Origin: an uncultured Chloroflexia bacterium
Lineage (GTDB): Bacteria; Chloroflexota; Limnocylindria; Limnocylindrales; CSP1-4
DNA: 64,000 bases
Reading direction: 5' to 3'
Assembly: GCA_963810725.1 (NCBI GenBank)
Contig: CAWEOO010000004.1
Location: 1,840-65,839 of the forward strand
Shown here in pieces: positions 5,439 to 60,056 of this stretch (position 1 is its first letter; each line of letters starts with the position of its first letter). A program made the position numbers and the translations under genes. The notes under the pieces were generated by a model. That model did not search any database, was not told where the DNA came from, and saw only the letters and a list, made by a program, of their open reading frames with translations.

Positions 5439-5618
5439 CCTTGCCATGCATTCACCTGGCGCGTGGTATCCGCTGAAGGACTCGTGCGAAGGCTGCGATC
5501 CGCCCCAGATCGACGCTTACCACGCACCTGAGTACTGGATGCCAAGGATTCAGGGCCACGTCGCCCGATCTGTGCGCGTGGTCCCGCATACCAGTAACCA
5601 CAGGAGTGAATGCCACAA
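5439..5618. repeat. REP-like intergenic array, family A (three 33-nt units: forward, reverse, reverse)
   Basis: Units 5439-5471(+), 5515-5547(-), 5586-5618(-) align without gaps to YCTTGGCATNCANT-N5-GGT-N3-TGGTA; same family at 43570-43741. Confidence 0.75.
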
Positions 5619-5666
5619 ATCGGCGGTCGCCTCGATCGACAGGCTCGCGACCGCGGTCCGGCGCGG

Positions 5667-6155
5667 TCAGATCTTCGGTTTGACGACCATGAGGAAGACG
5701 ATCGCCACGATCAGTAGCCCCATGCCCATGCCACCGAGCTGGACCCGCCTGATCAGCGCCATCAGCTCGGGCGGCGGACCGCTCGCGCCGGGCGGCGGCG
5801 GCGAGGACGTCATCTGGACGATGCGCTCGACGAGAGGATGCTGCACGAAGAACCCGTAGCCGTAGGCGATCAGATAGAGCACGATCCCGAGCGCGAGCCA
5901 CCAGCGATCGCGCTCGAGCGGGTTGATCCCCACGACCGCGAGCATCGCCAAGCCGGTGATCGGCAGGGTGAGGCCGACCGGCAGGACCCGTTTCGACGTG
6001 ATCGCGTGGCTTACCCGGGTCGCGAAATTGGCATGCTGCGGTTCCGCGCCGCCCATCGCCCCGACGAGCGAGAACGCGAACGTCGGCCCGAAGGCGACGA
6101 TCGCCCCCAGCACGTGCAGGAACAGCAGCCATGGGAACAGCCAGGCCAGATCCAT
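5667..6155 (-). CDS. DUF2269-like integral membrane protein
   Basis: LLFLHVLGAIVAFGP start and IVFLMVVKP end, four TM helices; GGAGG RBS. Confidence 0.75.
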   Translation of the reverse strand: MDLAWLFPWLLFLHVLGAIVAFGPTFAFSLVGAMGGAEPQHANFATRVSHAITSKRVLPVGLTLPITGLAMLAVVGINPLERDRWWLALGIVLYLIAYGYGFFVQHPLVERIVQMTSSPPPPGASGPPPELMALIRRVQLGGMGMGLLIVAIVFLMVVKPKI

Positions 6156-6213
6156 CGAACCCTCCCTCACGTGACCAGCCAAGCGGCGGGTGCCACGCAT
6201 CGGAGGATAGCCC

Positions 6214-8450
6214 CTACGACACCCGCTTCGAACGCCGTCCGACGAAGTCCACGAGCACGTATTCGCCAAGCCGTTCGGGCGTCGCGTAGAACGCCCGGCC
6301 ACGGTTGAGCTTCGTCATGTGGGCCACGAACTCGGCCAGGGCCCGGGAACGCTCCAGCATGAAGGTGTTGATCGTGATCCCTTCCTTCGTGCAGCGCTGC
6401 ACTTCGCGGAGGGTCTCGCTGATCGTCCTGCGGGTCGGCGGGTAGCTGAACTCGACCTGGCCATTCTCGAAATGGGCGGTCGGCTCGCCGTCCGTGATGA
6501 CCACGATCTCCTTGTTGGCCGACGCCTCCCGGGCCAGGATCCGGCGGGCCAGCAGCAGGCCGTGCTGGAGGTTCGTGCCGTACTCGTAGCCGTGCCACGA
6601 CAGCTCGGCCAGGGCGCCGGGCCGGATCTCACGGGCGTAGTACGCGAACCCGATGACGGTCAGGTGGTCGCGCGGGTACTGCGTCCGGATCAAGCGTGTC
6701 GAGCGCGACCGCGACCTTCTTGGCCGCCAGGAAGCAGCCGCGCAGCAGCATGGAGCGGCTCATGTCGACCAGGAGCACGGTCGCGGTGCGGGTGAGCTGC
6801 TCGGTCCGGTAGACCTCGAAGTCGGCCGCGGTCAGTCGGACGCCGCGCGCGCCACGCCGGACCGGCGCGTTCTCCTCGCGAGCGAGCGCATTCGCGAGCG
6901 TCCCCCGCAGGTCCAGGTGGAACGGGTCGCCGAACTCGAACGGCTTCGTCGTCTCCTCGCGCTCCCCGCCGCGCCCGCCGCGGTCCAGCCGATGGCCGCC
7001 GAACGCGTCGCGCTGGAGCCGGGCGAACAGGTCGTCGAGCACCTTCTGGCCGATCTTCCGGCTGCCCCGGGGCGTGAGCTCGAGATGGTCGCCGTCACGG
7101 GTCAGGTAGCCGGCCTCCTCGAGCCGCCGGGCGAGGTCGTCGAGCGTGTCGAGATCGCGGACCGCATCGTCACCCAGCAGCTCGCGGACCTGGTCGCGGT
7201 CGATGTCGGCGAGGTCGCCGGGAGCGTCGACGTCGGTGAGCGCGTCCTCCAGCCGTTCCATCGCCTGTAGCCGGGCGATCTGGGCGAGGGCGCCATCGAG
7301 CGTCAGCGACTCGTCGCCCTCGAAGCGGACCCGGTCGCCGAGCCCGCCGGGCATCAGCAGGTCCAGGTTCGAGGCGAGCTCGGCGAGGTCGAGCAGGAGC
7401 CGGTCGTCGCGCAGGAGCGCCTCCATCATCGACTCGAGCTCGGCGCGCTGCTCCGGGCTCATCGAGCGCATGAGCGACTGCATCGCGGCCATCCGCTGGG
7501 CGAGCTGGTCGATGATGTCGTCGAAGCTCTGGGCGCCGGGGAAGAACCGGCCGTGCTTGGCGAGGAAGTCGCGCACGTCCGGGTCGCGGCCACCGATCCG
7601 CTCGCGGATGAGCTCGTTGAGGTCGCGGACCATCTCCCGGTTGGCGCTGAGGTCCTCGGGGGTCATGGACCGGATGGCGTCGCTCATCCCGCCGACGAAC
7701 TGGTCCAGGACCTGCTTGCCGAGCCGCTCCACGAGCTCCTCGAAGCGGGCGCGCGCGTCGGGCTCGAGGAAGTCGTACTCGCGCAGGTCGCGGATGCGCT
7801 CGCCGACGTCGCGCGGGAGGGCGTCCAGCTGATCGAGCCGCTTCGCGGCGACGTCGCGGAGCAGCTTCTGGAGGTCGGGGTCGGGTGCATCGGGGTCGGG
7901 GCATCGCCCCCATCCGGCGCCGCGGGCGGCCCATCGGCCGAGGCGTTGGGTGCGGGCGGCGTCGCCGTGGCCTGTCGGCGGAGGCGTCAGGCAACGGCGG
8001 CGGACCGGGCGAGGCCGTGCTCGAGCGCTCGAGCCGGCTTTCGACGCCGGCCCGCTCCTGCGCGACGATCTCCTCCAGCTCCCGCCGGATGTCGCCGAGG
8101 ACGTCGCCGATCTCGAACCGCTCCCGCAGCTCCTCGCGGCGACGGGCGAGCCGATCCATGAGGTCCTGGAGCCCCGGCAGGTCGGGGCGGGTCGGGTCGC
8201 CGCTGCGCCAGCCACGCTCCATCAGCCGGCGCAGCGCCTCGGCGACGTCGCCGTCGGCCATGACGTCGTTCGAGAGCTCATCGAGGATCTCGTCCGCGCC
8301 GAGGTCCGGGACCTGCTGGCTCCCGTCCCAGCGCGAGTAGCGGGCGCGTCGGGCGAGCGCCGCCAGCGCGTCGTCCTCGGCCGCGCCCCGGTGCCGCGCC
8401 GGCGGCACGCGGCCGTCGAGATCACGCGGATCCGGCGTGTAGCCGGTCAT
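6214..8450 (-). CDS. VWA domain-containing protein (frameshifted)
   Basis: RYSRWDGSQ N-terminus, coiled-coil middle, MIDAS VDMSRSM, GTNLQHGL, VITDGEPTAH; spread over three frames. Confidence 0.85.
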
Positions 8451-8474
8451 GAGATCACCGATCGGGCGGCTGCT

Positions 8475-8830
8475 ATCGCTCTCAGCGATCGATTTCGGGG
8501 CGAAGGCGAGGTTCCGAGTCTCGAACGCGTCATCGCACCCTCGTCCGCGGCACGCCCATCGCTCTCAGCGATCTGGTTCGATGACCGTACGGATCCCCAG
8601 ATCCAACGCGACGGTGGGCTTGGGGCCCGGATTCGATCGCTCGGAGCGATGGCTCGCAGCCATCGATCCTGGCCCGAGGCCCGACGCGCGGCCGCCCAGG
8701 AACGCCAGCGCGGTCGCTTCGGGCTCGGTCGATGGCTCAGCGCCGACGGCGGCGCTCCGCGGACCTGCCCGGAAGGCGTATCGACCCCATCGCTGCCGCG
8801 TTCGCCCAGGTATCGATGGCGCACAGCCAC
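8475..8830. repeat. Two abutting REP-like arrays, family D (ATCGCT-N3-AGCGAT and ATGGCT-N3-AGCCAT cores)
   Basis: Cores at 8475-8489, 8558-8572, 8636-8650, then 8649-8663 and degenerate 8732-8746, 8816-8830; spacing 78-84 bp. Confidence 0.7.
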
Positions 8831-8869
8831 CAGCGGGGCGCGGGCCGGCGATCGGTGACGAGCCAACCG

Positions 8870-10300
8870 TCACCGGTGGTAGACCGTTCCGCCTGCGACG
8901 CGCTCCTTGTTGATCCGCCGGGCGAGGTGCAGGCCCTCGAGCAGGAACTCCACGGCCGACGCGACGACGGCCGGCTCCTCGGCCCCGTCGGTCACGTCGA
9001 ACGTGCCGAGATCGCGGACCGCGTCGCGCAAGCCCGGCACTTCGCGCGCCCACGCCACGTATTCGCGCGACGGCGTGCGCTCGCCGGTCTCGACGATGAA
9101 GCCCTCCTCGAACGCCTCGACGACCGGGTCGAGGTCGTCGAGCGTGACGCGGCGCGTGAACGTCGCGTACAGCGCCTTCGTGATGAGCCGCTCGACGATG
9201 CGCTCCTCGGGCGACTCGTCGCCGATGGACTCCAGCTCGACCTTGCCGACCGTCGAGGCCACGACCGCTCCCAGGTCCGAGACGCGCGGCGCGGCCAGCG
9301 ACTCGCCGAGACGGATCGCGCGCTTCAGCGCCGCGGCCTCGAGCACCTCCATGTTCGCCACGGAGACGCGGACCGACACGCCCGACCGCTGGCTGATCTC
9401 CGGGGAGCGGCGCGCGAGGTGCGTCAGCTCCGCGACGGCCTCCTCCATGAACGGCGGCACGACGACGACCGGCGAGCCCTCGGCCACGGCGAAGCGGTGC
9501 TTCTCCTGGCGGACGATCGACATCTCGTCGTCGAGGGTCCGCGGATAGTGCGTCCGGATCTGCGATCCCAGGCGGTCCTTGAGTGGCGTGATGATCCGGC
9601 CGCGCGACGTGTAGTCCTCCGGGTTCGCCGAGGCGACCACGTACAGGTCCAGCGGCAGACGAACGGTGAACCCGCGGATCTGGACGTCGCGTTCCTCCAG
9701 CACGTTGAGCAGCCCGACCTGGATCCGCTCGGCGAGGTCGGGCAGCTCGTTGATCGCGACGATGCCGCGGTTGGCGCGCGGGATCAGCCCGTAGTGGAGC
9801 GTCAGCTCGTCCGACAGGTAGCGGCCCTCGGCGACCTTGATCGGGTCCACCTCTCCGATCAGGTCGGCGATCGTGATGTCCGGCGTGGCGAGCTTCTCGG
9901 CGTAACGCCGGTCGCGCGGGAGCCAATCGACGGCGGTCTCGTCGCCGTCGCGCTCCACGATGGCCTTGGCGGCCGGGCTGACCGGCGCGTACGGGTCGTC
10001 GTTGAGCTCGCCGCCACGGACGATCGGGATCCACTCGTCGAGGAGGCCGACCAGGAGGCGCGCCATGCGGGTCTTCGCCTGGCCACGTTCGCCCAGGAAC
10101 ACGATGTCGTGCCCGGCCAGGATCGCGTTCTCGATCGCGGGGAGCACCGTCTCCTCGAACCCGACGACCGTCGGAAGCACCTCGGCCCCGGTCTCCAGGC
10201 GGTCGAGCAGGTTCGATCGAAGCTCGTCCTTGACGGTCCGCGAGCGCCAGCCGGCGGCCCGCAGTTCGGCGATGGTGGCGGGACGGGCGGGGGTCGGCAT
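8870..10300 (-). CDS. Mg-chelatase-like AAA+ ATPase
   Basis: Walker A variant LGERGQAKTR, DLIGEVDPIKVA, INELPDL, ASANPEDYTSRGRIITPLKDR. Confidence 0.9.
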   Translation of the reverse strand: MPTPARPATIAELRAAGWRSRTVKDELRSNLLDRLETGAEVLPTVVGFEETVLPAIENAILAGHDIVFLGERGQAKTRMARLLVGLLDEWIPIVRGGELNDDPYAPVSPAAKAIVERDGDETAVDWLPRDRRYAEKLATPDITIADLIGEVDPIKVAEGRYLSDELTLHYGLIPRANRGIVAINELPDLAERIQVGLLNVLEERDVQIRGFTVRLPLDLYVVASANPEDYTSRGRIITPLKDRLGSQIRTHYPRTLDDEMSIVRQEKHRFAVAEGSPVVVVPPFMEEAVAELTHLARRSPEISQRSGVSVRVSVANMEVLEAAALKRAIRLGESLAAPRVSDLGAVVASTVGKVELESIGDESPEERIVERLITKALYATFTRRVTLDDLDPVVEAFEEGFIVETGERTPSREYVAWAREVPGLRDAVRDLGTFDVTDGAEEPAVVASAVEFLLEGLHLARRINKERVAGGTVYHR

Positions 10301-10309
10301 GCGGTGTCC

Positions 10310-11242
10310 TCAGTTGGCGATGGGCGTGGCGCCGGCGGCGCTGGTCGTGCTTCGGTAGCCGTCGATGGCGGCGCGCACGGCGTCGACATCGACGATGCCG
10401 GCCTCGGCCAGGCCGGCGAGGTAATCGCGACGACGATCGACCTCGAGCTCGAAGTCGCCGGCCTTGCGCCCGACGCGCATCGCGAGCTCGGGGGTCACGC
10501 CCCAGCCGAAGTGCTCGAACCGTCGCGGGTCGGCTCCCACGTCGCGAGGACGGCGGGACCGAGTCGCTGGACATGGCCGTGCTCGTCGCGCGACGTCGGC
10601 CGGACGTAGTGCGCGGCGACGACCCGACGGACGCCGTCGCCGGCGGCCCGGAGGATCAGGACGACCCCGAGCCGCGACAGCTCGTCGTCGTTGACCTCCA
10701 CCGGCGGACGGCGGAGGGTCTCGAAGACCTCCTCGAGCGAGTCGGCATGGATCGTGGCGGCCAGGCCGTAGCCGATGGTGGCGGCCCGGATGGCGATGCG
10801 GGCCTCCTCGCCCCAGGTGTAGGACGGGAGGTGGTCGGAGAACTCGGGCACGAGGAGGACGGTGTCGTCGGGGCGGATCGGCGGGGGCTGCGCGGGCTGG
10901 TGCCGTCGCGGTCCGGTCCGGGGGCGGTCCGCCGCGAGGTCGGCGCCAACCGAGCTCCGTGGCCTGCGGCAGCCAGTCGAAGGTCTCCGACGAGCCCTCG
11001 AGCTCGACCGTCCGGATGCCCGGCGGCAGGAAGTCGAGGAGCGCGCCGAGGAGCGTGGACTTGCCGACTTGCCGGGCCTGGGCGGCGACGATGACCGGGA
11101 CGCGGCCCTCGATAAGGACCCACAGCGTCGCCGCCAGCTCCGCATCGAGCGTGCCGGCACGCAGCAGCTCCACGATGGAGCGCGGCGTCGGTGGCACGTG
11201 GCGAACGGCCCACCGGCCCCGCGCTGGCGAGGTGTCGGCCAA
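10310..11242 (-). CDS. Stand-alone VirB11/CpaF-like P-loop ATPase domain (two compensating frameshifts)
   Basis: LLRAGTLDAELAATLW...VGKSTLLGALLDFLP...TVELEG; ATIHADS His-box; TTG start after GGAG. Confidence 0.65.
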   Translation of the reverse strand: MADTSPARGRWAVRHVPPTPRSIVELLRAGTLDAELAATLWVLIEGRVPVIVAAQARQVGKSTLLGALLDFLPPGIRTVELEGSSETFDWLPQATELGWRRPRGGPPPDRTATAPARAAPADPPRRHRPPRARVLRPPPVLHLGRGGPHRHPGRHHRLRPGRHDPCRLARGGLRDPPPSAGGGQRRRAVAARGRPDPPGRRRRRPSGRRRALRPADVARRARPCPATRSRRPRDVGADPRRFEHFGWGVTPELAMRVGRKAGDFELEVDRRRDYLAGLAEAGIVDVDAVRAAIDGYRSTTSAAGATPIAN

Positions 11243-11372
11243 GGGAGTCTCCGAACGATCTGTGGTGGTTCCCGGTTCGGGGCGGCCAGCGTACGGCCGA
11301 CCCTCTGGAGCGTCAAACGCTGCCGCGATACCTGCCAGCGACCGTCGACATCGGTCGCCTACCATCGGGCCC

Positions 11373-11951
11373 ATGGCGCTCGGCATCCAGCCGCTCACCG
11401 CGGAACGCATCCCCGACCTCGCGACGCTGTTCGACCAGGGTGGCGACCCGAAATGGTGCTGGTGCGCGTGGTTCCGGGTCCGTGGCCGTGACTGGACCAA
11501 CGCGACGGCGGCGAGAACCGCACCTCCTCGAGACGGCGGCGCGGGAGCGGGACCACGCCCCGGGACTCGTCGCGTACGAGGACGGCGCGGTCGTCGGCTG
11601 GGTGAGCCTGGGGCCGCGCGAGGACTACGAGCGGCTCGCCTTCTCCAAGGTCCTCGCGCCCCTCGACGACGTGCCGGTCTGGTCGATCGTGTGCTTCGTC
11701 GTCGGGCGCAAGTCGCGCGGCCAGGGCGTCGCGGGCGAGCTCCTCGCCGCGGCGATCGACTACGCCCGCGATCACGGCGCGACGACCCTCGAGGCGTATC
11801 CGGTCGAGGTCACGCCGGGCGAACGGGTCCCCTCGGCCAACGCGTTCCAGGGCACGCTCGGCATGTTCGAGCGGGCCGGTTTCAAGGTCGTCGCGCGCCG
11901 CCGGGCCAAGCCGCCAGCCCGGTGCGCCCGATCGTCCGACTCAAGCTCTGA
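11373..11951 (+). CDS. GNAT N-acetyltransferase (frameshifted)
   Basis: WCWC, VGWVSLGPR, WSIVCFVV..RGQGVA, LEAYPV; TACCAT 7 nt before ATG (leaderless). Confidence 0.85.
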   Translation: MALGIQPLTAERIPDLATLFDQGGDPKWCWCAWFRVRGRDWTNATAARTAPPRDGGAGAGPRPGTRRVRGRRGRRLGEPGAARGLRAARLLQGPRAPRRRAGLVDRVLRRRAQVARPGRRGRAPRRGDRLRPRSRRDDPRGVSGRGHAGRTGPLGQRVPGHARHVRAGRFQGRRAPPGQAASPVRPIVRLKL

Positions 11952-12005
11952 CCGTCCCGCCAGACGCCGGACCTACGATGAGTGGCGCCGCGACGCCAGG
12001 CCCGC

Positions 12006-12156
12006 GGCAAGATCATCATCGGGGACGCTTATGGCCGGTCGCCGGCCGATTCTGGCGAGATCGTCACTGGGAGACGCTTCTGGGCAGGTTTCGGGCGAAT
12101 GTGGGTCGCATCGGGCCTGACAACGACCATAAGCGTCTGACGATGTCGATTTTGCC
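12006..12156. repeat. REP-like intergenic array, family E (forward, forward, reverse)
   Basis: 12006-12037 ggcaagatcatcatcggg-gacgcttatgg, 12054-12086 ggcgagatcgtcactgggagacgcttctgg, and reverse 12124-12156 ggcaaaatcgacatcgtcagacgcttatgg. Confidence 0.75.
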
Positions 12157-12328
12157 ATCGCTGAGCTGCTGGGGCGACGTGATCCGTCGTTCCGGGAGCC
12201 CGAGTGCGCGTCGACGTCAACGGTGTCTGGCGCGCTGACGTCTCGCCGGGACCTCAACGCGATGTCGACGAGCGGCCCCGCGACCGCCTACGTCATCCGT
12301 CGCTGCCCGACATCGTCATCCGCCGACG

Positions 12329-12357
12329 TTGACACCGCCCGGCCCAGCGCCTAGACT
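12329..12357 (+). promoter_or_regulatory. Near-consensus sigma70 promoter of ABC operon
   Basis: TTGACA-17 bp-TAGACT; two CGTCATCCGYCG direct repeats at 12291 and 12314 just upstream. Confidence 0.75.
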
Positions 12358-12416
12358 TCCGCTGGCGCGCAAGTCGCACGCCCTCGTCTAGCTCAAAGTT
12401 TGGAGGCGGTCTCCGA

Positions 12417-12500
12417 ATGAAGATGCTGCTGAATCTCCGACGCACCACGGCGCCCGACGGCGCTGCGGATCGCGGGAGATCTGCGCCCATCTCGAGCTAG
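12417..12500 (+). CDS. Putative 27-aa leader peptide MKMLLNLRRTTAPDGAADRGRSAPISS
   Basis: GGAGG at 12402-12406, ATG 12417, TAG 12498-12500; lies between promoter and terminator. Confidence 0.55.
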   Translation: MKMLLNLRRTTAPDGAADRGRSAPISS

Positions 12501-12536
12501 CCGCAGGCGGCAGGACCGCCTTCCGGACAGAACCCG

Positions 12537-12569
12537 AGCCGTGGGCCAGATCAGGCCCCCGGCTTTTTT
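12537..12569 (+). terminator. Intrinsic terminator in 5' leader (attenuator)
   Basis: AGCCG-T-GGGCC/AGATCA/GGCCC-C-CGGCT followed by a T run, 140 bp upstream of the first gene. Confidence 0.75.
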
Positions 12570-12709
12570 GATGCCCTTCCCTGCCACCCGGCAGGACCCA
12601 GAAGCCGACATCACGAGCCGCGAGGCCACCCGACGAAGCGTCGGACGAGGCCCGCGGCTCGTTCTTTGTCCGGAACCCACCCACCCGCCACGAACCCAGG
12701 AGCCACCAA

Positions 12710-13600
12710 GTGACCGCCACCTTGACCAACCAACTGAAGACGACGACTCCGGTGGCCAAGCCGGCGTCGTCGGCCGTGACGTCGGCGGTGCCTGCCCTGC
12801 TCATGGAGGGCGTCAGCAAGTCGTTCGTCGTCGGCCGCAAGCGCAAGCCGGTGGCCGCGATCACCGATGTGTCGTTGCGCCTCGAGCGCGGCGACATCCA
12901 CGGGATCCTCGGGGCCAACGGCTCGGGCAAGTCGACCCTCATCCGCCTCATCAGCGGGCTCCTGACCCTCGACACGGGTCGGGTCGAGGTGTTCGGCCAC
13001 GACCTCGAGCGCGAGGAGATGCAGGTCAAGCGCCTGATCAACCGGGTCAGCGTGGACGCCGCGTTCTTCAAGAAGCTGAGCCCCATGGAGAACCTGATGT
13101 TCGCGGCGCGGATCTATGGCCTCGATGGCAAGACCGCCCGCGCCGACGCCATCTCGATCATGGGCCGGCTCGGGATCGCCGAGAAGCGGACCAGCCGGCC
13201 CGTGGAGCAGATGAGCCGAGGGATGCAGCAGAAGGTCGCGATCGCGCGAGCCCTGCTGACCAGCCCGACGCTCCTGCTCCTGGACGAACCGACGACCGGC
13301 CTGGACCCGCGCAGCAAGCTCGACGTCCAGACCTTCATCGAGGAGATCAACGAGACCCATGACGCGACGATCGTCCTGACGACCCACGACCTGGCCGAGG
13401 CCGAGCGCCTCTGCGCCCAGATCACGGTCCTCAACGACGGCCGGACCATCACCGAGGGGACCCCGACCGAGCTCAAGGCGCAGACCACGCAGCGCCTGGG
13501 CCGCGAGGCGACCCTCGAGGACGTGTTCATGACCTACACCGGCCGCTCCCTCGACGACGACGTCGAAGAGGACGAGAGCGGCGACGACGAAAGACGACGG
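12710..13600 (+). CDS. ABC exporter ATP-binding subunit (DrrA-like; 3' end uncertain)
   Basis: GANGSGKST, MSRGMQQK signature, LLLDEPTTGLD, TTH, TLEDVF; AGGAG RBS; the computed read-through to 13861 is probably an indel artefact. Confidence 0.9.
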
Positions 13601-13616
13601 AAAGGAGGTGAGAACC

Positions 13617-13805
13617 ATGAACTTCAGTCAGACGGCTTTGGAGCTGGCGCGCATGCGCCAGGAGGAGCTGATCGCGGAGGCCGCGCAAGCGCGCCGAATC
13701 GAGCAGCGCCCCTCGACCATCCGCCGATTCGTCGGCCGCCGCGTCATCGCGGTGGGCGAGCGGATCGCCGCGGAACCCCGTTTCGAGCTGGCTCGGTCCC
13801 GTTAG
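13617..13805 (+). CDS. Small hypothetical protein (62 aa)
   Basis: Strong AAAGGAGGTG RBS 6 nt before ATG; helical LELARMRQEELIAEA. Confidence 0.6.
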   Translation: MNFSQTALELARMRQEELIAEAAQARRIEQRPSTIRRFVGRRVIAVGERIAAEPRFELARSR

Positions 13806-13841
13806 GACCGGGTCAGCTCCCTCGAACCAGGAGATCCTCTC

Positions 13842-14645
13842 GTGACCATCGTCGCCCATGAGCTGAGGGCCTCATACGCCTTCATCGAGCGCAACTTCTT
13901 TCTCACTCGCCGCTACTGGGGTTGGGAAGTCGCCTTCCTGATCTATTCCGTCGCGGGCGCGCTGTCGATCTCGCTCATCGGTGCCGACCAGGGCAGCCCG
14001 ACGCTGCTGCTCACGTTGATGGTGGGAGCGATCTTCTGGAACTACCTGTCGGTCGTGTTCAGCTGGATCGCCGAGACCATCTCGGTCGAGCGCTGGGAAG
14101 GCACGCTGGAGTACACGTTCATGGCGCCGATCCGGCGCTCGTCGCAGCTGCTCGGGTCGGTGCTGTACGCGATGGTCTACGGCCTCGTCCACACGGCCGT
14201 GATCTTCATCGCGCTCGTGCTGTTCTTCCCGCAGCTCGACTTCTCGAGCGCGAACCCGGCGACGGCGGTCGCGTTCATGCTGCTCGGCTCGTTCAGCTTC
14301 GTCGGGATCGGGATGATCGCCGCGATCCTGCCGCTGCTGTACGTGGAGCGCGGCGCGCAGATGACGTTCGTGCTGCAGTCCTGCCTGCTGCTCGTGAGCG
14401 GCGTGTACTACTCGGTCGAGGTGCTGCCGGACTGGATGCAGGTGCTGTCGCGCCTGTCGCCGGCGACGTACGTCCTCGACGGGGTCCGTGCCGGGCTGAT
14501 CTATGGCACGCCGATCAACGAGCTGCTCCACGACGTGTGGCCGCTGCTCGTGGCGGGCGCGGTGCTCATCCCGTTCGGGTTGTGGGCCTTCGCCCAGGCC
14601 GAGCGCTACGCCAAGCGCACCGGCAAGCTGAAGCGAGTGGGCTGA
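13842..14645 (+). CDS. ABC-2 type exporter permease
   Basis: ERWEGTLEYTFMAP, SGVYYSVEVLPDWMQ, about six TM helices. Confidence 0.9.
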   Translation: MTIVAHELRASYAFIERNFFLTRRYWGWEVAFLIYSVAGALSISLIGADQGSPTLLLTLMVGAIFWNYLSVVFSWIAETISVERWEGTLEYTFMAPIRRSSQLLGSVLYAMVYGLVHTAVIFIALVLFFPQLDFSSANPATAVAFMLLGSFSFVGIGMIAAILPLLYVERGAQMTFVLQSCLLLVSGVYYSVEVLPDWMQVLSRLSPATYVLDGVRAGLIYGTPINELLHDVWPLLVAGAVLIPFGLWAFAQAERYAKRTGKLKRVG

Positions 14646-14648
14646 GCC

Positions 14649-17271: not shown

Positions 17272-17284
17272 GCCCGCCCGCGGA

Positions 17285-19478: not shown

Positions 19479-21869
19479 CTAGGACAGGCCTTTCTCGTGC
19501 AGGATGGCCCAGACCTTCTGGGGCGTGATCGGGATGTCGATGTTGCGGACACCGAGGTGCCACAACGCGTCGACGACCGCGTTGGCGATCGCCGGTGGAG
19601 CGCCGACCGTGGCTGATTCACCGACGCCCTTCGCCCCGATCGGGTGATGCGGCGACGGCGTCACCGTCTTGGCCACCTCCCAGGCCGGCGTCTCCATGGC
19701 CGTCGGCACGAGGTAGTCCATGAACGTGCCGGCCATGTTGTTGCCCAGCTCGTCGTAGGTGATCTCCTCGTACAGCGCCGGCGCAAGGCCCATCGTCAGG
19801 CCGCCATGAATTTGTCCGTCGACGATCATCGGGTTGATGATGTTGCCGCAGTCATCGACGGCCACGAACCGGCGGATGTTGACTCGGCCCGTCCCCTTGT
19901 CGATGTCGACGACGCAGATGTACGACCCGAACGGGAACGTCAGGTTCGGCGGGTCGTAGTAGTTGACCGCCTCGAGCCCGGCCTCCATCCCCTGCGGGTG
20001 GTTGGTGTACGCGGCGAAGGCGATCTCCTGAATGGTCTTGAACCGGTCCGGCGATCCCTTCACGCTGAACTTGCCGGGCTCCCAGTCGAGATCCTCCTCC
20101 GACACCTCCATCAGGTGCGCGGCGAGCGTGCGGGCCTTGGCCTGGATCTTGCGCGCGGCCATCGCGGCCGCGGCACCCGCCACCGGCGTGGACCGCGACG
20201 CATACGTGCCCAGACCGTAGGGCGCCGTGTCCGTGTCGCCGTACTCGATCTTGATGTCCTGCACCGGGAAGCCCAGCTCCTCCGCGATGATCTGGGCGAA
20301 CGTGGTCTCGTGGCCCTGGCCCTGAGTCTGCACGCCGATGCGGGCGAGGACCTTGCCCGTCGGATGCACCCGAATCTCGCACGAATCGAACATCTTGAGC
20401 CCGAGGATGTCGAAGTCGTGCGACGGCCCGGCCCCGACGATCTCGGTGAAGGAGCTGATGCCGATGCCCATGAGTTCGCCGCGTTCGCGCTTCTCGGCCT
20501 GCTCCTTGCGCAGCCCGGCGTAGTCGATCATGTCCATGGCCTTCTGGAGCGCCGGGCCGTAGTCGCCCGAGTCGTACTCCCAGCCGGTCGGGGTCTTGTA
20601 CGGGAACTGGTCCTTGCGGATGAAGTTCTCCATCCGCAGCTGGGCCGGGTCCTTGCCGATGTCGTGGGCGAGGATGTCGACCATCCGCTCGATGGCGTGG
20701 ACGGCCTCGGTCACCCGGAATGAGCAGCGGTAGGCCACGCCGCCCGGTGGCTTGTTCGTGTAGACGCCATCGACTTCGACGAACGCATTATCGAAGTCGT
20801 ACGAGCCGGTGATCACGTTGAAGAGGCCGGCCGGGAACTTGGACGGGTCGGCGGCGGCATCCGAGTACCCGTGATCGGCGATCGTTTTCACCTTCAGGGC
20901 GGTGATCCGGCCTTCCTTCGTCGCCCCCATCTCGGCATGGATGTGGTAATCGCGGGCGAACGAGTCCGCCTGCAGGTTCTCGCTACGATCTTCGATCCAC
21001 TTGACCGGCTTGCCGATCAGGAACGAGGCAGCGACGGCCAGGACATAGCCCGGGTACACGGGCACCTTGCCCCCGAAGCCACCGCCGATGTCGTGCGTCT
21101 TGACCCGGATGTTCTGCTCGTAGATGGGCAGGCCGGCGCCACCGGCAACGAGGGCGAGCACCGTCCGGATGGCGTGCGGTGCCTGGCTGGTCATGTGCAG
21201 CGTGAGCTGCTGGCGGACGGGGTCCCAATCCGCGACGCAGCCGCACGTCTCGATCGATGCGACATGGATGCGTGGGATGTAGATGTCCTGCTCGACCCGC
21301 ACGTCGGCCGCCGTGAGCGCCGCGTCGGCCTTGGCCGCATCGCCCGATTCCCAGTGCCAGATGCGGTTGTTGGCTTTCTCCGGGCCACGGTCGGGCCGGA
21401 GCACGAACGCATCGGGTTCGAGGGCCTTGTGCGGGTCGACGATGACCGGCAGCGGCTCGTAGTCGACGAGGACGGCGGCGACGCCGTCGGCGGCGGCATA
21501 CCGGGAGGTGGCGATGACCGCCGCGACCTCCTGCGATTGGTACATGACGGTGTCCACCGGGAGCACCATCTGCATGTCGCCCGCGAGGGTCGGCATCCAG
21601 TGGAGCTTGTAGCCCTCCAGGTCCTTGCCGGTGACCACCGCGGCGACACCCGGGACCTTCAGCGCCTCGGAGGCGTCGATCGACTTGATCGTCGCGTGGG
21701 CGTAGGGACTCCGCACGATGTCGAGCCAGAGCTGCCCCGGCAGATTGACGTCCTCGATGTACTCGCCGGCCCCGCGGATGAAGCGCGGGTCCTCCTTGCG
21801 CTTGACGGAATGGCCCATGCCTCCGATCTCGGGGGAGGTCCGCAGCTCGGCTTCGGTTTCGGTCGTCAT
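19479..21869 (-). CDS. coxL: Aerobic CO dehydrogenase large subunit, form I
   Basis: RKEDPRFIRG, GGGFGGK, active-site AYRCSFR (about 20715-20735), GQGHETT, GAKGVGES; M-S-L order. Confidence 0.95.
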   Translation of the reverse strand: MTTETEAELRTSPEIGGMGHSVKRKEDPRFIRGAGEYIEDVNLPGQLWLDIVRSPYAHATIKSIDASEALKVPGVAAVVTGKDLEGYKLHWMPTLAGDMQMVLPVDTVMYQSQEVAAVIATSRYAAADGVAAVLVDYEPLPVIVDPHKALEPDAFVLRPDRGPEKANNRIWHWESGDAAKADAALTAADVRVEQDIYIPRIHVASIETCGCVADWDPVRQQLTLHMTSQAPHAIRTVLALVAGGAGLPIYEQNIRVKTHDIGGGFGGKVPVYPGYVLAVAASFLIGKPVKWIEDRSENLQADSFARDYHIHAEMGATKEGRITALKVKTIADHGYSDAAADPSKFPAGLFNVITGSYDFDNAFVEVDGVYTNKPPGGVAYRCSFRVTEAVHAIERMVDILAHDIGKDPAQLRMENFIRKDQFPYKTPTGWEYDSGDYGPALQKAMDMIDYAGLRKEQAEKRERGELMGIGISSFTEIVGAGPSHDFDILGLKMFDSCEIRVHPTGKVLARIGVQTQGQGHETTFAQIIAEELGFPVQDIKIEYGDTDTAPYGLGTYASRSTPVAGAAAAMAARKIQAKARTLAAHLMEVSEEDLDWEPGKFSVKGSPDRFKTIQEIAFAAYTNHPQGMEAGLEAVNYYDPPNLTFPFGSYICVVDIDKGTGRVNIRRFVAVDDCGNIINPMIVDGQIHGGLTMGLAPALYEEITYDELGNNMAGTFMDYLVPTAMETPAWEVAKTVTPSPHHPIGAKGVGESATVGAPPAIANAVVDALWHLGVRNIDIPITPQKVWAILHEKGLS

Positions 21870-21882
21870 CGTCGTCGCTCCC

Positions 21883-22431
21883 TCAACCGGCCGCGGCCGG
21901 TTCGGCCGAGACTTCCTGACCGTCGACGGTCTCCGCGGCCACGACCGGCGCCGATTCGCTCTCGCGGAGCACTCCGGCGGCCTGCTGGATGGCCTTCACG
22001 ATGTTCACGTAGCCGGTGCAGCGGCAGAGGTTGCCGCTGATCCCCTCGCGGATCTCGGCCTCGGACGGGTCGGGGTTCTGGCCGAGGAGCCACTCCGCCT
22101 GCATGATCATGCCCGGGGTACAGAACCCGCACTGGAGACCGTGCTGGTCCCAGAACGCCTGCTGGAGCGGGTGGAGCGTCGCGCCATCGGCGATTTCTTC
22201 GATGGTCCGGATCTCACGGCCGTCGGCCTGGACGGCGAGCATCGTGCACGACTTGGCGCTCTGGCCGTCGACGTGGACGGTGCACGCGCCGCAGTTGCTG
22301 GTGTCGCATCCCACGTGGGTGCCGGTCAGCCCGAGGTTCTCTCGAAGGAGATGGACGAGGAGCAGGCGCGGCTCGACGTCGACTTCGTGGGTCTCGCCGT
22401 TAACGGTGATGCTGATGTGGTGCATCGTCAT
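21883..22431 (-). CDS. coxS: CO dehydrogenase small (2Fe-2S) subunit
   Basis: [25 protein letters not shown]. Confidence 0.95.
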
Positions 22432-42859: not shown

Positions 42860-42876
42860 GGTGGTCTCCCCTTCCC

Positions 42877-43374
<498 letters not shown>

Positions 43375-43513
43375 GAGCCGACCTCCTTCGACGACTGAGT
43401 GCCAGTGGCGACCGGCCGTCCCGGCCCTCGACGGGGGGCGGTGCCGTGCGTCTTGCTGGAGCATCCGGAGCCTCGGGCCGACGGATCGCGCACGTTCGGC
43501 GAGAGGTCCGACG

Positions 43514-43542
43514 ATGGTGGCACCGCACGGTGCCGGAATCAA
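43514..43542 (-). promoter_or_regulatory. Putative promoter/operator of second cox-like operon
   Basis: TTGATT-17 bp-CACCAT; perfect GGCACCG-CA-CGGTGCC palindrome (43519-43534) in the spacer. Confidence 0.5.
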
Positions 43543-43569
43543 GCCCGCGGCGCGGAGGATGACGCCGAT

Positions 43570-43741
43570 TCTTGGCATCCAGTCACAGCGTTACTGCTAT
43601 GAGCCGAATCCACGGCGAATCGACCTCGCAACCGGCGTGATCCCTGGAATCCACGCACGCGAAGGCTGCGTTGGACCCGATCGAGCGCCCGATCCGCCGA
43701 ATTGTGGGTGATACAACCCACCCCAGTACTGCATGCCAAGG
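43570..43741. repeat. REP-like intergenic element, family A (forward + reverse units as terminal inverted repeats)
   Basis: 43570-43602(+) and 43709-43741(-) match the 5439-5618 units; internal GCGAAGGCTGCG also shared with 5486-5497. Confidence 0.75.
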
Positions 43742-43855
43742 TTCCTCGCACGGAGCTCACCTGCCGGCGTGAACTCGGGTTCCGGGACCGGCGCGCCGCG
43801 ATTCGGGTGCGGAAGACGGCGCCGAACTGGCTTCGTGGCGCCGGCGCGGCGCGGG

Positions 43856-54029: not shown

Positions 54030-54133
54030 ACGGCGCCGCCCTCGGGATTGTGCCGGCTCCCCATCTCGCGCACGCCCGCGCCGACGCTCCGGGCAACGTT
54101 CCGTGCGGGTCCATGTCCGGAAAACGACATGCC

Positions 54134-54222
54134 AATGACATTCCCAGTGCAAGGTTGGCAGTAGTACTATCGGCGCCCCGCGGGGGCGGGACCGCGCACG
54201 AGAGTACTCAGGGCACTCGGGG
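54134..54222 (+). promoter_or_regulatory. Tad-cassette promoter/operator, copy 2
   Basis: AATGACATT palindrome starts 31 bp before TACTAT (54165-54170), same spacing as copy 1; GGCACTCGGGG at 54212. Confidence 0.7.
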
Positions 54223-54283
54223 AACCCGGCTGCGCGGACGGGCGAGAGCCGATCGAACATCGTTGGGCCAGCGCGAGTCTGCC

Positions 54284-56470: not shown

Positions 56471-56488
56471 CGTGAGGAGCGCGACGGG

Positions 56489-56707
56489 CTAGCCGGCCTC
56501 ACCGAGCGCCGACCGGGAAGCGGCCGATACGGGCTGAGAGGGACGTGGCCAGAACAGCCCTGCCGGGTCGAGCCCGACGAAGGCTGCGACCGAGACGGCG
56601 GTCATGGGCACGAGCCACGAGGGCAACCCGAACACGAAGGCGCCAATCGCAGCAACCATCCAACCGGCCACGAACCAGAGCGGGACCGCGACGACTCGTT
56701 TGAACAT
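56489..56707 (-). CDS. Small two-TM membrane protein (paralog of 53778..54029)
   Basis: MFKRVVAVPLWF...GLP...P...DPAGLFWP. Confidence 0.65.
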   Translation of the reverse strand: MFKRVVAVPLWFVAGWMVAAIGAFVFGLPSWLVPMTAVSVAAFVGLDPAGLFWPRPSQPVSAASRSALGEAG

Positions 56708-56825
56708 GCCTGAACCATGGTCCCGACGCGTCCCCACGGGAATAGCGCGGGCGTACCGGGGGGACGGCTCAAAAGTCATCGACGCGGGCGACCGATCCCT
56801 GGTCCGAGTCCGGGGTGCGAAGGTT

Positions 56826-58377
56826 TCAGGGCGCTTCCCGGTCGTCCGCGTCGGCGTCGGCCGCGGCCGGCTCGTCGGCGGTGCCGGCCAGGTCCGGGTC
56901 CTCGGCGCCCACCGTGGGGCCGCTGTCCCCGCCCTCGTCGACGGCCACCTCGAGCCCCTCGGGGACCGGCCCGAGCGCCTGCGGCGCCTCGTCGTGCTCG
57001 ATGACGACCGTGCCGAGGCCGGCGGTCTCCAGGAGCGGGCCGATCGCGTCGGCGTCACCGACGAGCACGATGGCGGCCTCATCGATCCGGAGATGCTCGC
57101 GGGCCGCGGCGGCGGCCTCTTCGATGCCGACGGCCTCGATCCGGCGGCGGTACTCGATCAGCTCCTCGACCGGCAAGCCGTGGATCGCCAGGCCGGACAG
57201 GGCCGCGGCGACCGCGCCGGGAGTCTCGAACCGGAGCGGGAACACGCCCACGAGGAAATCACGCGCCGCGGCGAGCTCACTGGCCTCGACCGCCGTGTCG
57301 CGCATCCGCTCGAGCTCGGCCAGGGTGTCGATGACGGCCGGAACGGTGACTTCCGTGTTGACGGCGGCCCGCGCGCTGAACGGGCCCGGCACCACGGCGC
57401 ATGTCGAAGCCGGCGCTCGCCCCGTAGGTGTAGCCCTTGGCCTCGCGCAGCTGCATGTTCAGCCGCGAATTGAAGAGCCCACCGAGGATGGCGCTCATGA
57501 CCGAGACCGCGTGGAAATCGGCGATCCGTCGCGGCAGCCCCGGATGGCCGATCCGGATCTCGGTCTGGACCGATCCCGGTCGATGCACGACCCGGATCCG
57601 GCGGGCAGTCGCGGCAGCCGTGTCGACGATCTTGCCGCCGCCGCGCGGCGATTCCGGCGCGGTCCACGCGTCGAGCAGGTCATGCACCATCGCGACCGCG
57701 TCCTGGCCGCCGAGATCGCCCGCCACCACGAGCGTGGCCCGCGAGGGATCGACGGTCCTCGCGTAGGCGCGCCGCAGCACGCCGGCATCGAGCCGCTCGA
57801 CGGTCTCGCGAGTGCCGCCGGACGGCCGGTGGTAGGGCGATTCGGGCGCGTAGATCGTGTCGATGAACGCTTCGTCGGCCCGGCGGCGCGGATCGGCCTG
57901 GGCCTGCAGCAGGTCGTTGAGCCGCTCGTCGCGCAGCCGCTCGACCTCGTCCGGCGGGAACGTCGGCCGGAGCAGGACCTCGGCCAGGAGCTCGAGGGCG
58001 GCGCGCAACCGGGTCGTCGGCACGTCGACGCTGACACTGGTGGCGTCCCAGCCCGCATCGGCGTGGAGCGAGGCGCCCAGCCGCTCGCTCGCCTCGATCA
58101 GGGCGACGGCGTCGTATCGCTCGGTGCCCTCGGTCAGGGCGCGCGCGGCGAGGACCGCGGCCCCGCCCTCGTCCGCGGGCTCGTCGACGGCACCGGTCGG
58201 GATCACCACCGACGCGCTGACCAGCGGCCGGCCGGGCAGGTCGGCGACGAAGACCGTCAGGCCGTTGTCGAGTCGCGCCTGGGCGAGGCTCGGGAACTCG
58301 TACGGCCGCGGGACCCCGGGCGTCGGGCGTTCGGCGACGACGTTCCCGTCGAGCTCGAGGCGGTCCGTGGCGGTCAT
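56826..58377 (-). CDS. M16 peptidase, non-catalytic subunit (frameshifted)
   Basis: LDNGLTV, no HxxEH, LGGLFNSRL..LREAKGYTYG. Confidence 0.85.
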
Positions 58378-59752
58378 GCCGCGACCTCCTCGTCCTGCTC
58401 GGTTTCCGTCTCGGCCTTCTCGTCCGTGTCGCTTTCGACGACACCGGAGTCCGCCGGCGCCATCTCGGGCAGGTACGTCAGGACGAGGCGGTTGTCCGGC
58501 CGGAAGGTCGCGGCCGCGACCTCGAGGATCGCCTCGGGCGTGACCGACAGGTAGCGCCCCAGCATCTCGTTGATGAGGCCCGGATCGTCGAAGAGCGTCG
58601 CGTACATCGACAGCCGGTCGGCGCGTTCCTCGACCCGCTGCAGCGCCCCCAGCTCGTCGGCCTCGACCAGCGCGAAGGCCCGGGCGAGCTCGTCGGCGCT
58701 CACCGGCTCGACGGCGAGTCGTTCGGTCTCCTCGTGCAGGGCGGCCTCCACGCGTTCGACGGTCACGCCCGGCCGGACGGTCGCCCAGCCGGCGATGATC
58801 GATGCCCCGCCGATGAACCCCAGCGTGAACAGGGCCACGTCCTGGGCGATGCGCTCGTCGCGCACGAGGCGCCGGTGCAGCCGGCTGCCCTTGCCGCCGG
58901 CCAGGATCTGGCCGGCGATCTCGAGGGCGTCGAGCCGTCGGTCGCCGTACACCGGCGCGCGAAAGCCGACGTAGATGCGCGGCAACGGCACCCGGTCATG
59001 GACGACCTCGCGGATCTCGGCACCGAGCGTGCGGGGGCAGCGACAGGTCGCCGAGCGGCGGGATCGAGGGGTTGGCCGGGATGGCGCCGAAGTAGCGCTC
59101 GACGCTGCGCCGGACCTCGGGCGTGTCCACGTCGCCCACGACCGAGAGCACGGCGTTGTTCGGCGCGTAGTAGGTCCGGAAGAACTCGCTGACGTCCTCG
59201 ATCGAGGCGGCGTCGAGGTCCTCCATCGAGCCGATCGTCGAGTGGTGGTACGGGTGCTCCGGCGGGTAGAGGTGGGCCTGCAGCTTCTCCTGCCACGTGC
59301 CGTACGGCCGGTTGTCGTAGGACCAGCGCTTCTCGTTCTTCACGACCTCGCGCTGGTTGTCGAGGTTCTCCTGGCTCAGCGCGTCGAGCAGGGTCGCCAT
59401 CCGGTCCGCCTCGAGCCACAGCGCGAGATCGAGCTGGTGGGACGGCAGGGTCTCGAAGTAGTTCGTCCGGTCCAGCCACGTCGTGCCGTTCATCGTGCCG
59501 CCGGCGGCCTGGATGAGCGCGATGTGCTCGGCCTTGCCGACGTGCCTGGAGCCCTGGAACATCACGTGCTCGAACAGGTGCGCGAAGCCGGTCTTGCCGG
59601 GCTGCTCGTGCTTGGAGCCGACGTCGTACCAGACGTTGACCGCGACGACCGGGGCGAGGTGGTCCTCCGCGACGATCAGGCGAAGGCCGTTGGCGAGGCG
59701 CTCATCGCTGATAGGCCGTGGTCGGGATCGGGGTGGTCGGGCTGGTCGGCAC
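58374..59752 (-). CDS. M16 zinc peptidase, catalytic subunit (frameshifted)
   Basis: LANGLR, WYDVGS, GFAHLFEHVMFQGS (HxxEH), REVVKNE, YYAPNNA. Confidence 0.9.
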
Positions 59753-59867
59753 GCGCGGCTCCTGGGACGGGGCGGAGTCGTTGCGGTGGGTCGGCGACTG
59801 GGCCGAGGCGAGTGGGGTCGATCGTACCGCGTCGGATCGGTCCCGGCCGCGGCGCTCGAGTTCGCAG

Positions 59868-60056
59868 CGTGCATCGGGTGCACCTATCGACGAACGGACA
59901 CGTTCTCGTGCCCCGCTCGTGCACTGGGTGCGGCTATCGGCGAACGGACGTGTCGCCAGACCCCGTTCATGCACCTGGTGCACGGGCTGGCCATTGGGGA
60001 CCTGGATCCAGCCTGGTCCGGGCCTCTCCTTCGTCGATACGAGCGTGGGGTGCACG
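59868..60056. repeat. REP-like intergenic array, family C (three direct units at 50-bp period plus one inverted)
   Basis: GTGCAY-N3-GTGCAC-type cores at 59869, 59919, 59969; TATCGRCGAACGGAC follows the first two; inverted copy 60030-60056. Confidence 0.75.

Follow-up and report, generated by a model that had tools for sequence, protein, structure and literature searches.

REP-like repeat families and candidate partner genes encoding a helix-turn-helix and a predicted nuclease domain in an uncultured Limnocylindria bacterium

Five intergenic loci in a 64,000-nucleotide (nt) stretch of DNA from an uncultured Chloroflexia bacterium (assembly GCA_963810725.1, contig CAWEOO010000004.1; this whole stretch is referred to below as the window) carry elements built from short repeat units of four sequence families, here named C, E, A/D and B. 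Each of the four families has a candidate partner gene elsewhere in the same genome, and all candidate partners belong to one set of paralogs, which encode an XRE-type helix-turn-helix (HTH) domain followed by a predicted nuclease domain of the PD-(D/E)xK fold. Four of the paralogs are bracketed by four different repeat families. We propose that the window families are non-autonomous elements comparable to repetitive extragenic palindromic (REP) sequences and to REP doublets forming hairpins (REPINs), each paired with its own single-copy gene as the mobilising enzyme; we put the probability of this reading at about 0.6. Mobilisation by the nuclease is what we infer from the pairing, from the spread of the elements and from the conserved active site, all as read from sequence.

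The assembly (G000 below; other genomes are likewise denoted by G numbers) comprises 3,507,660 bases in 10 contigs with ~ 70% G+C, and is rated 78.7% complete. The window corresponds to G000:C4:1840-65839, and coordinates of repeat loci are given in window numbering unless a contig prefix is added. Unit profiles were built from the window copies, and the genome was searched with nhmmer and scripts. The gene list consists of 3068 genes called with our own crude caller, with calls covering ~ 80% of the assembly.

Results

Paralogous genes bracketed by the repeat families

A first look for genes bracketed by one family returned three genes of ~ 230 amino acids, each enclosed by copies of a different family and encoding related proteins. 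By profile search, nine full-length paralogs combining HTH_XRE and PD-(D/E)xK domains were found in the genome (L001-L009). Those standing next to a recognised family are the following.

L001, G000:C7:4029-4748: family C on both sides
L008, C7:82434-83078: family E on both sides
L005, C7:150877-151611: family B on both sides
L004, C1:156701-157432: family FAM4 on both sides, in inverted arrays of 4 and 6 units
L003, C8:1102577-1103335: family A/D on one side, as a complete element 158 nt upstream

All candidate cognate genes lie outside the window. In the entire gene list, 5 of 3068 genes have units of a single family on both sides, at a distance of no more than 350 nt. Paralogs make up four of these five, and the family differs from one to the next (hypergeometric p = 1.7e-10); the fifth is an SMP-30-like neighbour of L001 situated within a cluster of family C copies. 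The original prediction, made on the window alone, had supposed a diversified set of cognate mobilising enzymes encoded elsewhere and had advised a search for a nuclease gene flanked by each family. The four bracketed paralogs give this idea a concrete candidate, with family A/D found on one side of its gene only. The paralogs are single-copy, and no two of the nine exceed 55% identity to the first sequence, L001.

No Y1 transposase of the kind encoded by REP-associated tyrosine transposase (RAYT) genes was detected: PF01797 gave 0 matches in the 78.7% complete assembly at an E-value of 0.01, and the same search was positive in 6 of 14 control genomes. Longer copies of the elements were sought in G000 by BLAST and by profile, and none was found besides units composed of element, gene and element, whose proteins match only HTH families.

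Several observations concern the surroundings of the paralogs. Boxes similar to ATAAGCG(T/C)C, the core of the family C unit, occur within ~ 40-120 nt upstream of the starts of L001, L002, L006, L007 and L009 (on C7, C4 and C8), including paralogs that have no multi-copy family. Such a box may be an autoregulatory operator. In addition, an HTH-only open reading frame (ORF) of 95 amino acids, weakly related to the paralogs, adjoins a further repeat family made of GATGCCGCTGA-GTGCATCAGCC units, and may be a truncated paralog with its own repeats.

HTH-only ORF and its repeats: G000:C7:93027-93314, C7:93377-93626; C3:59978-60141, C3:66126-66233

Finally, an ORF next to a family C cluster (G000:C7:6601-6760) includes a stretch of 21 residues resembling the HTH of L001 (16/21 identical by eye, below the tblastn threshold), and is possibly a decayed second copy of the L001 gene.

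Repeat elements in the window

The elements and their units are listed below; loci for which no strand is given are unstranded.

Locus A, 5437-5619: family A/D, three units of ~ 33 nt in the order + - -
Units of locus A (nhmmer): 5437-5470 (+), 5517-5549 (-), 5587-5619 (-), equal to C4:7276-7309 (+), 7356-7388 (-), 7426-7458 (-)
Locus B, 8451-8869: insertion of 419 nt that carries a composite family B element and separates an AAA+ ATPase gene from the next gene downstream
Locus B, B1 palindromes CCATCGCT-NNN-AGCGATGG: 8473-8489, 8556-8572, 8634-8650
Locus B, B2 palindromes GATGGCT-NNN-AGCCATC: 8648-8664, 8815-8831
Locus C, 12006-12156, plus strand: family C, units 12006-12040 (+), 12054-12083 (+), 12122-12156 (-)
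Ends of locus C: GGCAAGATCATC...GTCGATTTTGCC
Locus D, 43568-43742: family A/D, two inverted end units, 43568-43601 (+) and 43710-43742 (-)
Locus E, 59868-60056, plus strand: family E, units 59868-59899 (+), 59918-59949 (+), 60027-60056 (-)
Consensus of family A/D: aTTCTTGGCATcCAgT...GTGGTATC

Profile searches bore out all five loci of the original prediction, and also its observation that one family is present twice in the window, loci A and D being members of the same family. The palindromic cores of 6-3-6 nt that it quoted form only the middle of units that extend over ~ 30-36 nt. The direct units of locus E are spaced by 50 nt. The segment 8475-8830 had been divided into two elements; it is better read as one composite B1+B2 element, because the same pairing recurs at three other loci in the genome, with a period of ~ 82 nt. 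The 419-nt insertion at this locus ends in terminal inverted repeats, TCACCGATCG / CGATCGGTGA.

Locus B had also been described as separating a pair of AAA+ and VWA genes. The upstream gene indeed encodes an AAA+ ATPase (AAA_5 in Pfam), but the downstream gene has no VWA match in Pfam, even at an E-value of 0.05. This downstream gene is spanned by two minus-strand ORFs within 6629-8450 (6629-8215 and 7170-8450), which overlap in different frames and have no significant Pfam domain in either frame. Its similarity to relatives extends to 8449, and the overlapping frames could represent a frameshift or an assembly error.

The search of the whole window against Rfam at gathering thresholds gave 0 matches. 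In the sequencing runs, at most 0.14 of the sampled words were present in any run and none is listed as RNA; the four runs examined correspond to contigs of relatives and say nothing on expression.

Apart from the repeats, the window contains two paralogous gene clusters ~ 21 kb apart (19479-22431 and 40432-43578), which share several blocks of 72-77% nucleotide identity. The cluster adjoining locus D ends in a [2Fe-2S] protein (Fer2_2). This pair is an ordinary gene duplication with no relation to the repeat elements.

Families across the genome and unit architecture

The families are not confined to the five loci but occur as tens of units genome-wide. Family C is the most numerous; nhmmer found 72 of its units, distributed over 21 loci, or 20 when the duplicate contig C5 is left out. 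Its canonical element is 151-155 nt long with units in the order + + -, and longer copies comprise up to seven direct units with a 50-nt period, closed by one inverted unit. Elements of this family end in terminal inverted repeats, yGGCAGGATCGAC...GTCGATCCTGCCr. Family E has 33 units in 17 loci and shows the same 50-nt period of direct units, and family A/D has 23 units in 11 clusters of ~ 170-185 nt. A fifth abundant family, FAM4, is absent from the window; its 23 units, at 9 loci, are arranged in tandem every ~ 62 nt. With C, E, A/D and B in the window and FAM4 outside it, the expectation of at least four co-existing families holds.

FAM4, core GTCGCGTGGCAGACGACGCC: G000:C1:156462-156697, 157497-157854; C4:109476-109714, C8:560076-560248, and others

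Contig C5 (47.6 kb) contains a reverse-oriented copy of window positions 3800-13900 (G000:C4:5639-15739) at C5:4029-14143, with 96% identity overall and 97-100% identity in the included loci A, B and C. Rather than being truly duplicated, the stretch probably stems from a second strain or haplotype that was binned together with the first. Each count of repeat loci with C5 included is one too high.

One organisational pattern is common to the families. Elements are 150-190 nt long and consist of one to seven direct units of ~ 30-36 nt followed by a closing inverted unit, and the outermost units are inverted relative to each other in nearly all clusters. In the suggested test for intergenic bias, 0 clusters of families C, E and A/D were located inside crude gene calls. 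Most elements lie 26-110 nt past the stop codon of the gene before them, and of 14 same-strand contexts of family C, 11 show the element co-oriented with transcription.

Minimum-energy folds pair the ends of the elements, and locus C folds as a whole into one hairpin. Compared with dinucleotide shuffles, RNA folding z-scores were -5.4 for C, -4.0 for E, -4.6 for D, -3.0 for A and -2.1/-1.9 for B1/B2, within a range of about -1.9 to -5.9, whereas 25 random intergenic 160-mers used as a control had a mean z of -0.43 (standard deviation 1.3). The objection that chance alignments of GC-matched intergenic sequence could produce such families is not upheld, as they recur genome-wide and fold better than their shuffled versions. 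An array of the CRISPR (clustered regularly interspaced short palindromic repeats) type was also considered and dropped; there are no more than seven direct units, the closing unit is inverted, and no cas genes were noticed alongside.

The units are not entirely symmetrical. In families C and E, the central 4-6 nt of a unit do not invert together with its arms: the left unit has GGGG and the reoriented right unit CCCC, so the same run of G or C lies on one strand at both ends of the element. Moreover, families E and A/D have separate unit types for the left and the right end. The non-inverting centre suggests a strand-specific feature or reading, or distinct left and right ends, and together with the end-specific unit types it argues against a simple symmetric hairpin.

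Domain structure and distribution of the paralogs

In Pfam and NCBIfam, only the N-terminal XRE-type HTH is recognised, and all nine paralogs pass the cut-off of HTH_3 or HTH_31. The best match of this domain among PDB sequence profiles is C.BclI (3.6e-12), a restriction-modification (R-M) controller (C) protein, followed by HigA2 and others. The remaining ~ 170 residues correspond to no family in Pfam or NCBIfam; the sub-threshold hits all belong to PD-(D/E)xK families, HSDR_N_2 and MmcB-like (Pfam) and sce7726 (NCBIfam).

An AlphaFold2 model based on an alignment of 103 sequences has a predicted local distance difference test (pLDDT) score of 95 and displays an alpha-beta-beta-beta-alpha-beta core (helix 79-95, strands 100-109, 112-122 and 127-134, helix 140-160, strand 167-175). 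Three acidic residues are situated on the first three strands, E104 (kept in 102/103 members), D117 (103/103) and E132 (103/103), at a mean column identity of 29%. With VIA-align, the best structural neighbour of residues ~ 80-223 is the fdxN-element excision-controlling factor (PDB 2okf; Z 9.8, root-mean-square deviation 2.9, 113 aligned residues, 12% identity). Further Z values, for residues ~ 64-224, are 9.1 (1y88), 8.9 (2vld and 7bdv), 8.4 (6wxw) and 8.1 (1xmx), and AF1548, a Pyrococcus abyssi repair endonuclease and Can2/Card1 are among the other structural neighbours with the PD-(D/E)xK fold. Foldseek disclosed Shedu SduA, VC1899, Card1, the R2 endonuclease and BstEII, with 8ps5 at an E-value of 1e-4. 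Based on the model, the C-terminal domain has a PD-(D/E)xK nuclease fold with conserved acidic residues, and the protein is a predicted nuclease.

Modelled as a homodimer, the protein reached a score of 0.70, compared with 0.00 for the best of three controls. Among proteins of solved structure, 20 of 30 pairs and 1 of 23 single chains scored as high. At least 70% of contacts are common to the runs, and the pLDDT of the partner is at least 77. The interface is made by the HTH and the linker, and because of that the result may echo the solved XRE dimers.

The protein family is large, with 1088 clusters at 50% identity (E-value of 1e-30 or lower). In a sample of 300 other Chloroflexota genomes, members were confined to two families of the class, where 15/16 and 14/15 genomes hold from 2 to 9 or more copies each; the remaining 270 have none. 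Residues 70-225, used as a query against the ESM Atlas, retrieved only unnamed clusters, most commonly from Chloroflexota. In the viral contigs of IMG/VR there were 100 pattern matches, among which no relative was confirmed, and PADLOC reported matches to the HTH domain only, with no defence family for the nuclease domain. Restriction-modification was considered as a function and dropped: no methyltransferase was recognised in the flanks and crude gene calls, which were viewed with no Pfam scan of the neighbours, and the putative sites are abundant in the host genome.

Empty sites and recent spread among relatives

A comparison of filled and empty orthologous sites, proposed in the original prediction, was done with 10-kb and 19-kb queries over congeneric genomes. 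Gene order is kept and intergenic gaps vary, and all five loci are empty in at least one congener. The site of locus A is empty in G038 (44 nt between conserved blocks, vs 324 nt). At locus B, the gap is 419 nt in G000 and -4, -4, 51, 7, 97, 10, 0, 268, 1, 50 and 3 nt in eleven relatives; the two genes share an overlap of 4 nt in G042 and G038. In contigs of soil relatives, position 8449 continues directly into 8870, with the insertion missing. At locus C, G000 has 338 nt, and the corresponding site measures 88 nt in G038 and 43 nt in G014, being short or empty there. Locus D is empty in G042 (23 vs 301 nt) and G038 (44 vs 303 nt), and in G014 a shorter remnant retains the left unit. For locus E, G014 and G042 have the element in orthologous position and G038 lacks it (24 vs 238 nt).

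The same picture was obtained for entire families. In a BLAST search, family C was matched 20 times in G000, and 38 of 40 congeners gave 0 matches; among these 38 is the closest congener, G042, in which the genes flanking the loci are 87-94% identical to those of G000. Family E is present only in G000, G014 and G042, with marginal matches in G038 and G047. A scan of 120 loci of relatives (402,840 nt) with the profiles of families C, E and A/D and with the pattern of B detected only the locus of G000 itself, the family E copies at L126 of G042, and a weak family C match in L106. These comparisons indicate that the families have spread recently, lineage by lineage. Fixed transcription-factor operators, which the original prediction had named as the case that would speak against it, were dropped as an explanation: there are tens of loci per family, and their positions are not conserved.

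Some sites appear to have been occupied again and again. At the site of locus B, G033 (L038) has units of the type TGACC-NNN-GGTCA, seen as CTGACC-CAC-GGTCAAC, and at the site of locus C, G036 (L041) has units of the type AGTCC-N5-GGACT, seen as AGTCC-CCACA-GGACT. Units of other families at orthologous sites in relatives (L038, L041, and L031 at the locus C site of G042) include those of the GCATGCAC type. Because relatives carry different palindromic families at the same sites, the genus as a whole holds many more families than G000.

Pairing of genes and families in other genomes

Orthologs, defined by at least 80% identity, were identified by comparing the nine G000 paralogs with all paralogs of five relatives (G042, G014, G038, G047 and G049). 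Orthologs of L008 exist only in G042 (87%) and G014 (93%), the sole two of the five with family E matches below an E-value of 1e-5. The G042 ortholog (L126) has family E units on both sides, and the G014 ortholog has one just upstream. L004 has an ortholog only in G014 (84%). FAM4 is matched 14 times in this genome, twice immediately next to the ortholog; a single marginal FAM4 match was obtained in each of G042, G038 and G047, and none in G049. L001, L003 and L005 are without orthologs in the five relatives (best identity 63%), and families C, A/D and B are absent or marginal there, except for the remnant of element D at the orthologous G014 site. As the genomes are related and incomplete, this co-occurrence is a consistent pattern and not statistical proof.

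A comparable arrangement was observed in G074, a 98% complete genome from another family of the class. Four of its seven paralogs have left and right flanks that match each other, over 164 nt (82% identity), 140 nt (84%), 117 nt (100%) and, in the fourth, a short stretch, and none of these cross-matches the flanks of other paralogs. One flank element has 33 matches genome-wide, and two others are present in 2-3 copies.

Discussion

Comparison with known systems

The best parallel is provided by the REP and REPIN elements of Proteobacteria and their RAYT (TnpA-REP) genes (PMC8266576, PMC5581495, PMC3733652). In both cases, short structured extragenic units are present in tens of copies, with inverted pairs forming a larger hairpin. 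Several families of distinct sequence share a genome, every family has one single-copy gene attached to it that its repeats surround, and it is the short elements that multiply while the gene does not. The differences are nevertheless considerable. The flanked gene encodes an XRE-HTH and PD-(D/E)xK protein here and a Y1 HUH transposase there. The units are ~ 30-36 nt long, with direct units 50-82 nt apart in elements of 150-190 nt, and the host belongs to the class Limnocylindria (Chloroflexota). Cognate genes are distributed patchily between close species, whereas RAYT genes are stably inherited. Furthermore, the GTAG/CGTC tetranucleotide is lacking, and the ends, judged by eye, are GGCAGGATCGAC (C), CGTGCAC (E), TTCTTGGCAT (A/D) and CCATCGCT (B). 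The original remark that the proteobacterial pattern is not obvious here can therefore be kept: no such tag exists in the unit consensuses, and no Y1 transposase was found.

Miniature inverted-repeat transposable elements (MITEs) and their parent insertion sequences, such as elements of the Correia or Nezha type, are another point of reference. They resemble the elements described here in a size of 150-190 nt, terminal inverted repeats, intergenic position, presence or absence between relatives, and lineage-specific bursts. They differ in that the present elements have no clear target-site duplication and no longer copy with a known transposase domain, and in that the gene-bearing form is bracketed by two whole elements.

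Likeness at the protein level points in several directions. The fdxN-element excision-controlling factor of Anabaena, which we take to be XisH, has a PD-(D/E)xK-like fold and is tied to excision of a DNA element; with 12% identity, no HTH fusion and no repeat families, the likeness is one of fold only. TnsA of Tn7 is a PD-(D/E)xK nuclease involved in transposition, and illustrates that a nuclease related to restriction endonucleases can make the cuts at the ends of a mobile element. TnsA, however, partners the DDE transposase TnsB in a large transposon, and no such partner stands beside the genes described here. R-M controller proteins are represented by C.BclI, the best PDB sequence match of the HTH domain. 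Type II restriction endonucleases share with the paralogs the occurrence of ExK, ExQ and ExE motifs, which recall active-site variants such as those of BglII and BamHI. R-M systems differ in that here nine or more paralogs are present per genome and recognition-like sequences are abundant in the host, with no methyltransferase recognised in the flanks viewed.

On our analysis, the ensemble would be best described as a REP/RAYT-like system with a different enzyme class. No description of these repeats, or of a repeat-associated HTH-PD-(D/E)xK protein, was found in the literature outside subscription journals and supplements.

Proposed mechanism and points against it

In the mechanism that we propose, a dimer of HTH domains would read the family-specific unit, and the nuclease domain would cut at or near the ends of the element. 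In this way the protein would act in trans to copy or move elements into new intergenic positions, the part generally ascribed to RAYT for REPINs. Recombination between element copies may also carry the gene along, as a cassette of element, gene and element. Direct, sometimes identical flanks and the patchy presence of paralogs between sister species suggest that one element copy accompanies the gene and that entry takes place at a resident copy, by recombination. A more far-reaching version, to which we give somewhat less than even odds, is that XRE-HTH and PD-(D/E)xK proteins constitute a new class of repeat-mobilising enzymes, an analogue of RAYT on a restriction-endonuclease fold. These would have many specificities in Limnocylindria, each driving its own REPIN-like family, with cassettes hopping between resident copies by recombination.

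A number of observations weigh against these proposals. Four paralogs (L002, L006, L007 and L009) have no recognisable cognate family, and three of them have orthologs in G042 that are likewise without repeats in their flanks. The link between family A/D and L003 is one-sided and weak on its own. Outside G000, flanking on both sides is the minority state: doubly flanked paralogs number 1/10 in G042, 0/10 in G036, 0/6 in G108 and 0/7 in G326, and left and right flanks match in 10/74 Limnocylindrales loci, compared with 8/219 mismatched-pair controls. In the protein, K134 is replaced in 19 of 103 members (K 84, Q 9, H 4, W 3, E 3); ExQ and ExE variants of the motif occur in bona fide restriction enzymes.

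The repeats themselves add to these points. Left and right units are less alike within an element than between elements (0.714 vs 0.753 in family C, 0.692 vs 0.745 in family E), because the centre of the unit does not invert with the arms. Since the units of one element are no more alike than those of different elements, covariation gives no support to a selected hairpin. Target-site duplications, a further check suggested at the outset, did not show up within 20 nt on either side of 21 C, 17 E and 11 A/D clusters, and the junction of locus B offers only a possible GTCA repeat of 4-5 nt. No precise excision or insertion product was seen either. Different families at the same orthologous sites could reflect turnover in place and not repeated insertion. 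In addition, gene counts rest on a crude caller, absences rest on BLAST searches with short repeats in incomplete and fragmented genomes, and the relatives compared are not independent of each other.

Alternative explanations

Among the alternatives, the one that fares best, though we hold it to be unlikely, takes the unit of element, gene and element (~ 1.1-1.2 kb) as the mobile element proper, a selfish gene resembling an insertion sequence or a cassette, with the gene product as its transposase or recombination nuclease and the copies of 150-190 nt as its gene-less MITEs. It differs from the preferred explanation only in who parasitises whom. Genes located between two complete elements in direct orientation, such as L001, L126 in G042 and L165-L167 in G074, would suit it; the flanks of L167 are identical over 117 nt (100%). 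So would the lack of orthologs in the closest relative for paralogs with abundant families, which fits horizontal gain, and the two G074 flank families with 2-3 copies, as expected of a newly arrived unit. However, the single-copy state of the paralogs, with identities to L001 of no more than 55%, indicates that the gene-bearing form is not multiplying in the genome. The gene is moreover bracketed by two whole elements instead of one left and one right end, and no relative was found in the viral collection.

Next in rank, and also improbable in our estimate, is that the proteins act as DNA-binding regulators or nucleoid organisers, in which the nuclease-like domain serves oligomerisation or sensing. 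The repeats would then be arrays of operators, including autoregulatory sites, spread by slippage, recombination or unrelated machinery. The classical XRE HTH, with repressors, antitoxins and R-M controller proteins as its closest solved relatives, is what such an explanation would predict, and a degenerate unit or ATAAGCG box just upstream of several paralog starts is as expected for autoregulation. A role at transcript ends would suit the position of most elements 26-110 nt past a stop codon and the co-orientation of family C in 11 of 14 cases. It is at odds with three active-site acidic residues that are invariant or nearly so in 103 members at 29% mean column identity. The elements do not keep their positions even between species whose flanking genes are 87-94% identical, family C appeared at ~ 20 sites in one lineage, and one element splits a pair of genes that overlap by 4 nt in relatives, all of which speak against regulatory sites as well.

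Coincidence or artefact, by which unrelated repeats and genes gather in long intergenic regions or in mis-binned contigs, could draw on the 78.7% completeness of the assembly, its duplicated contig C5, and the matches in 8/219 mismatched flank pairs from different genomes, but is very improbable given that four families each bracket a different paralog (p = 1.7e-10), that the pattern recurs in G042, G014 and G074, and that the families are spread over seven contigs and the paralogs over four.

Implications

To our knowledge, REP/REPIN elements with RAYT, which are HUH single-strand transposases, are the only well-described short structured repeat families in bacteria kept together with a dedicated single-copy enzyme. 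The pairing of repeats with HTH-PD-(D/E)xK genes would present the same architecture with an unrelated enzyme fold, in an uncultured soil phylum and with families turning over between sister species. It would show that the arrangement of repeats plus keeper evolved more than once and, if true, would be the first partnership of a REP-type repeat and an enzyme outside the HUH world.

The proposal also gives a testable function to a large uncharacterised protein family (1088 clusters). Matched pairs of protein and ~ 30-bp site are such that sequence specificity could be read by comparison and, if the explanation is true, they would amount to a natural library of programmable pairs of nuclease and site. 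For the genomes concerned, the elements account for much of the variable intergenic DNA, and probably for some of the contig breaks in assemblies.

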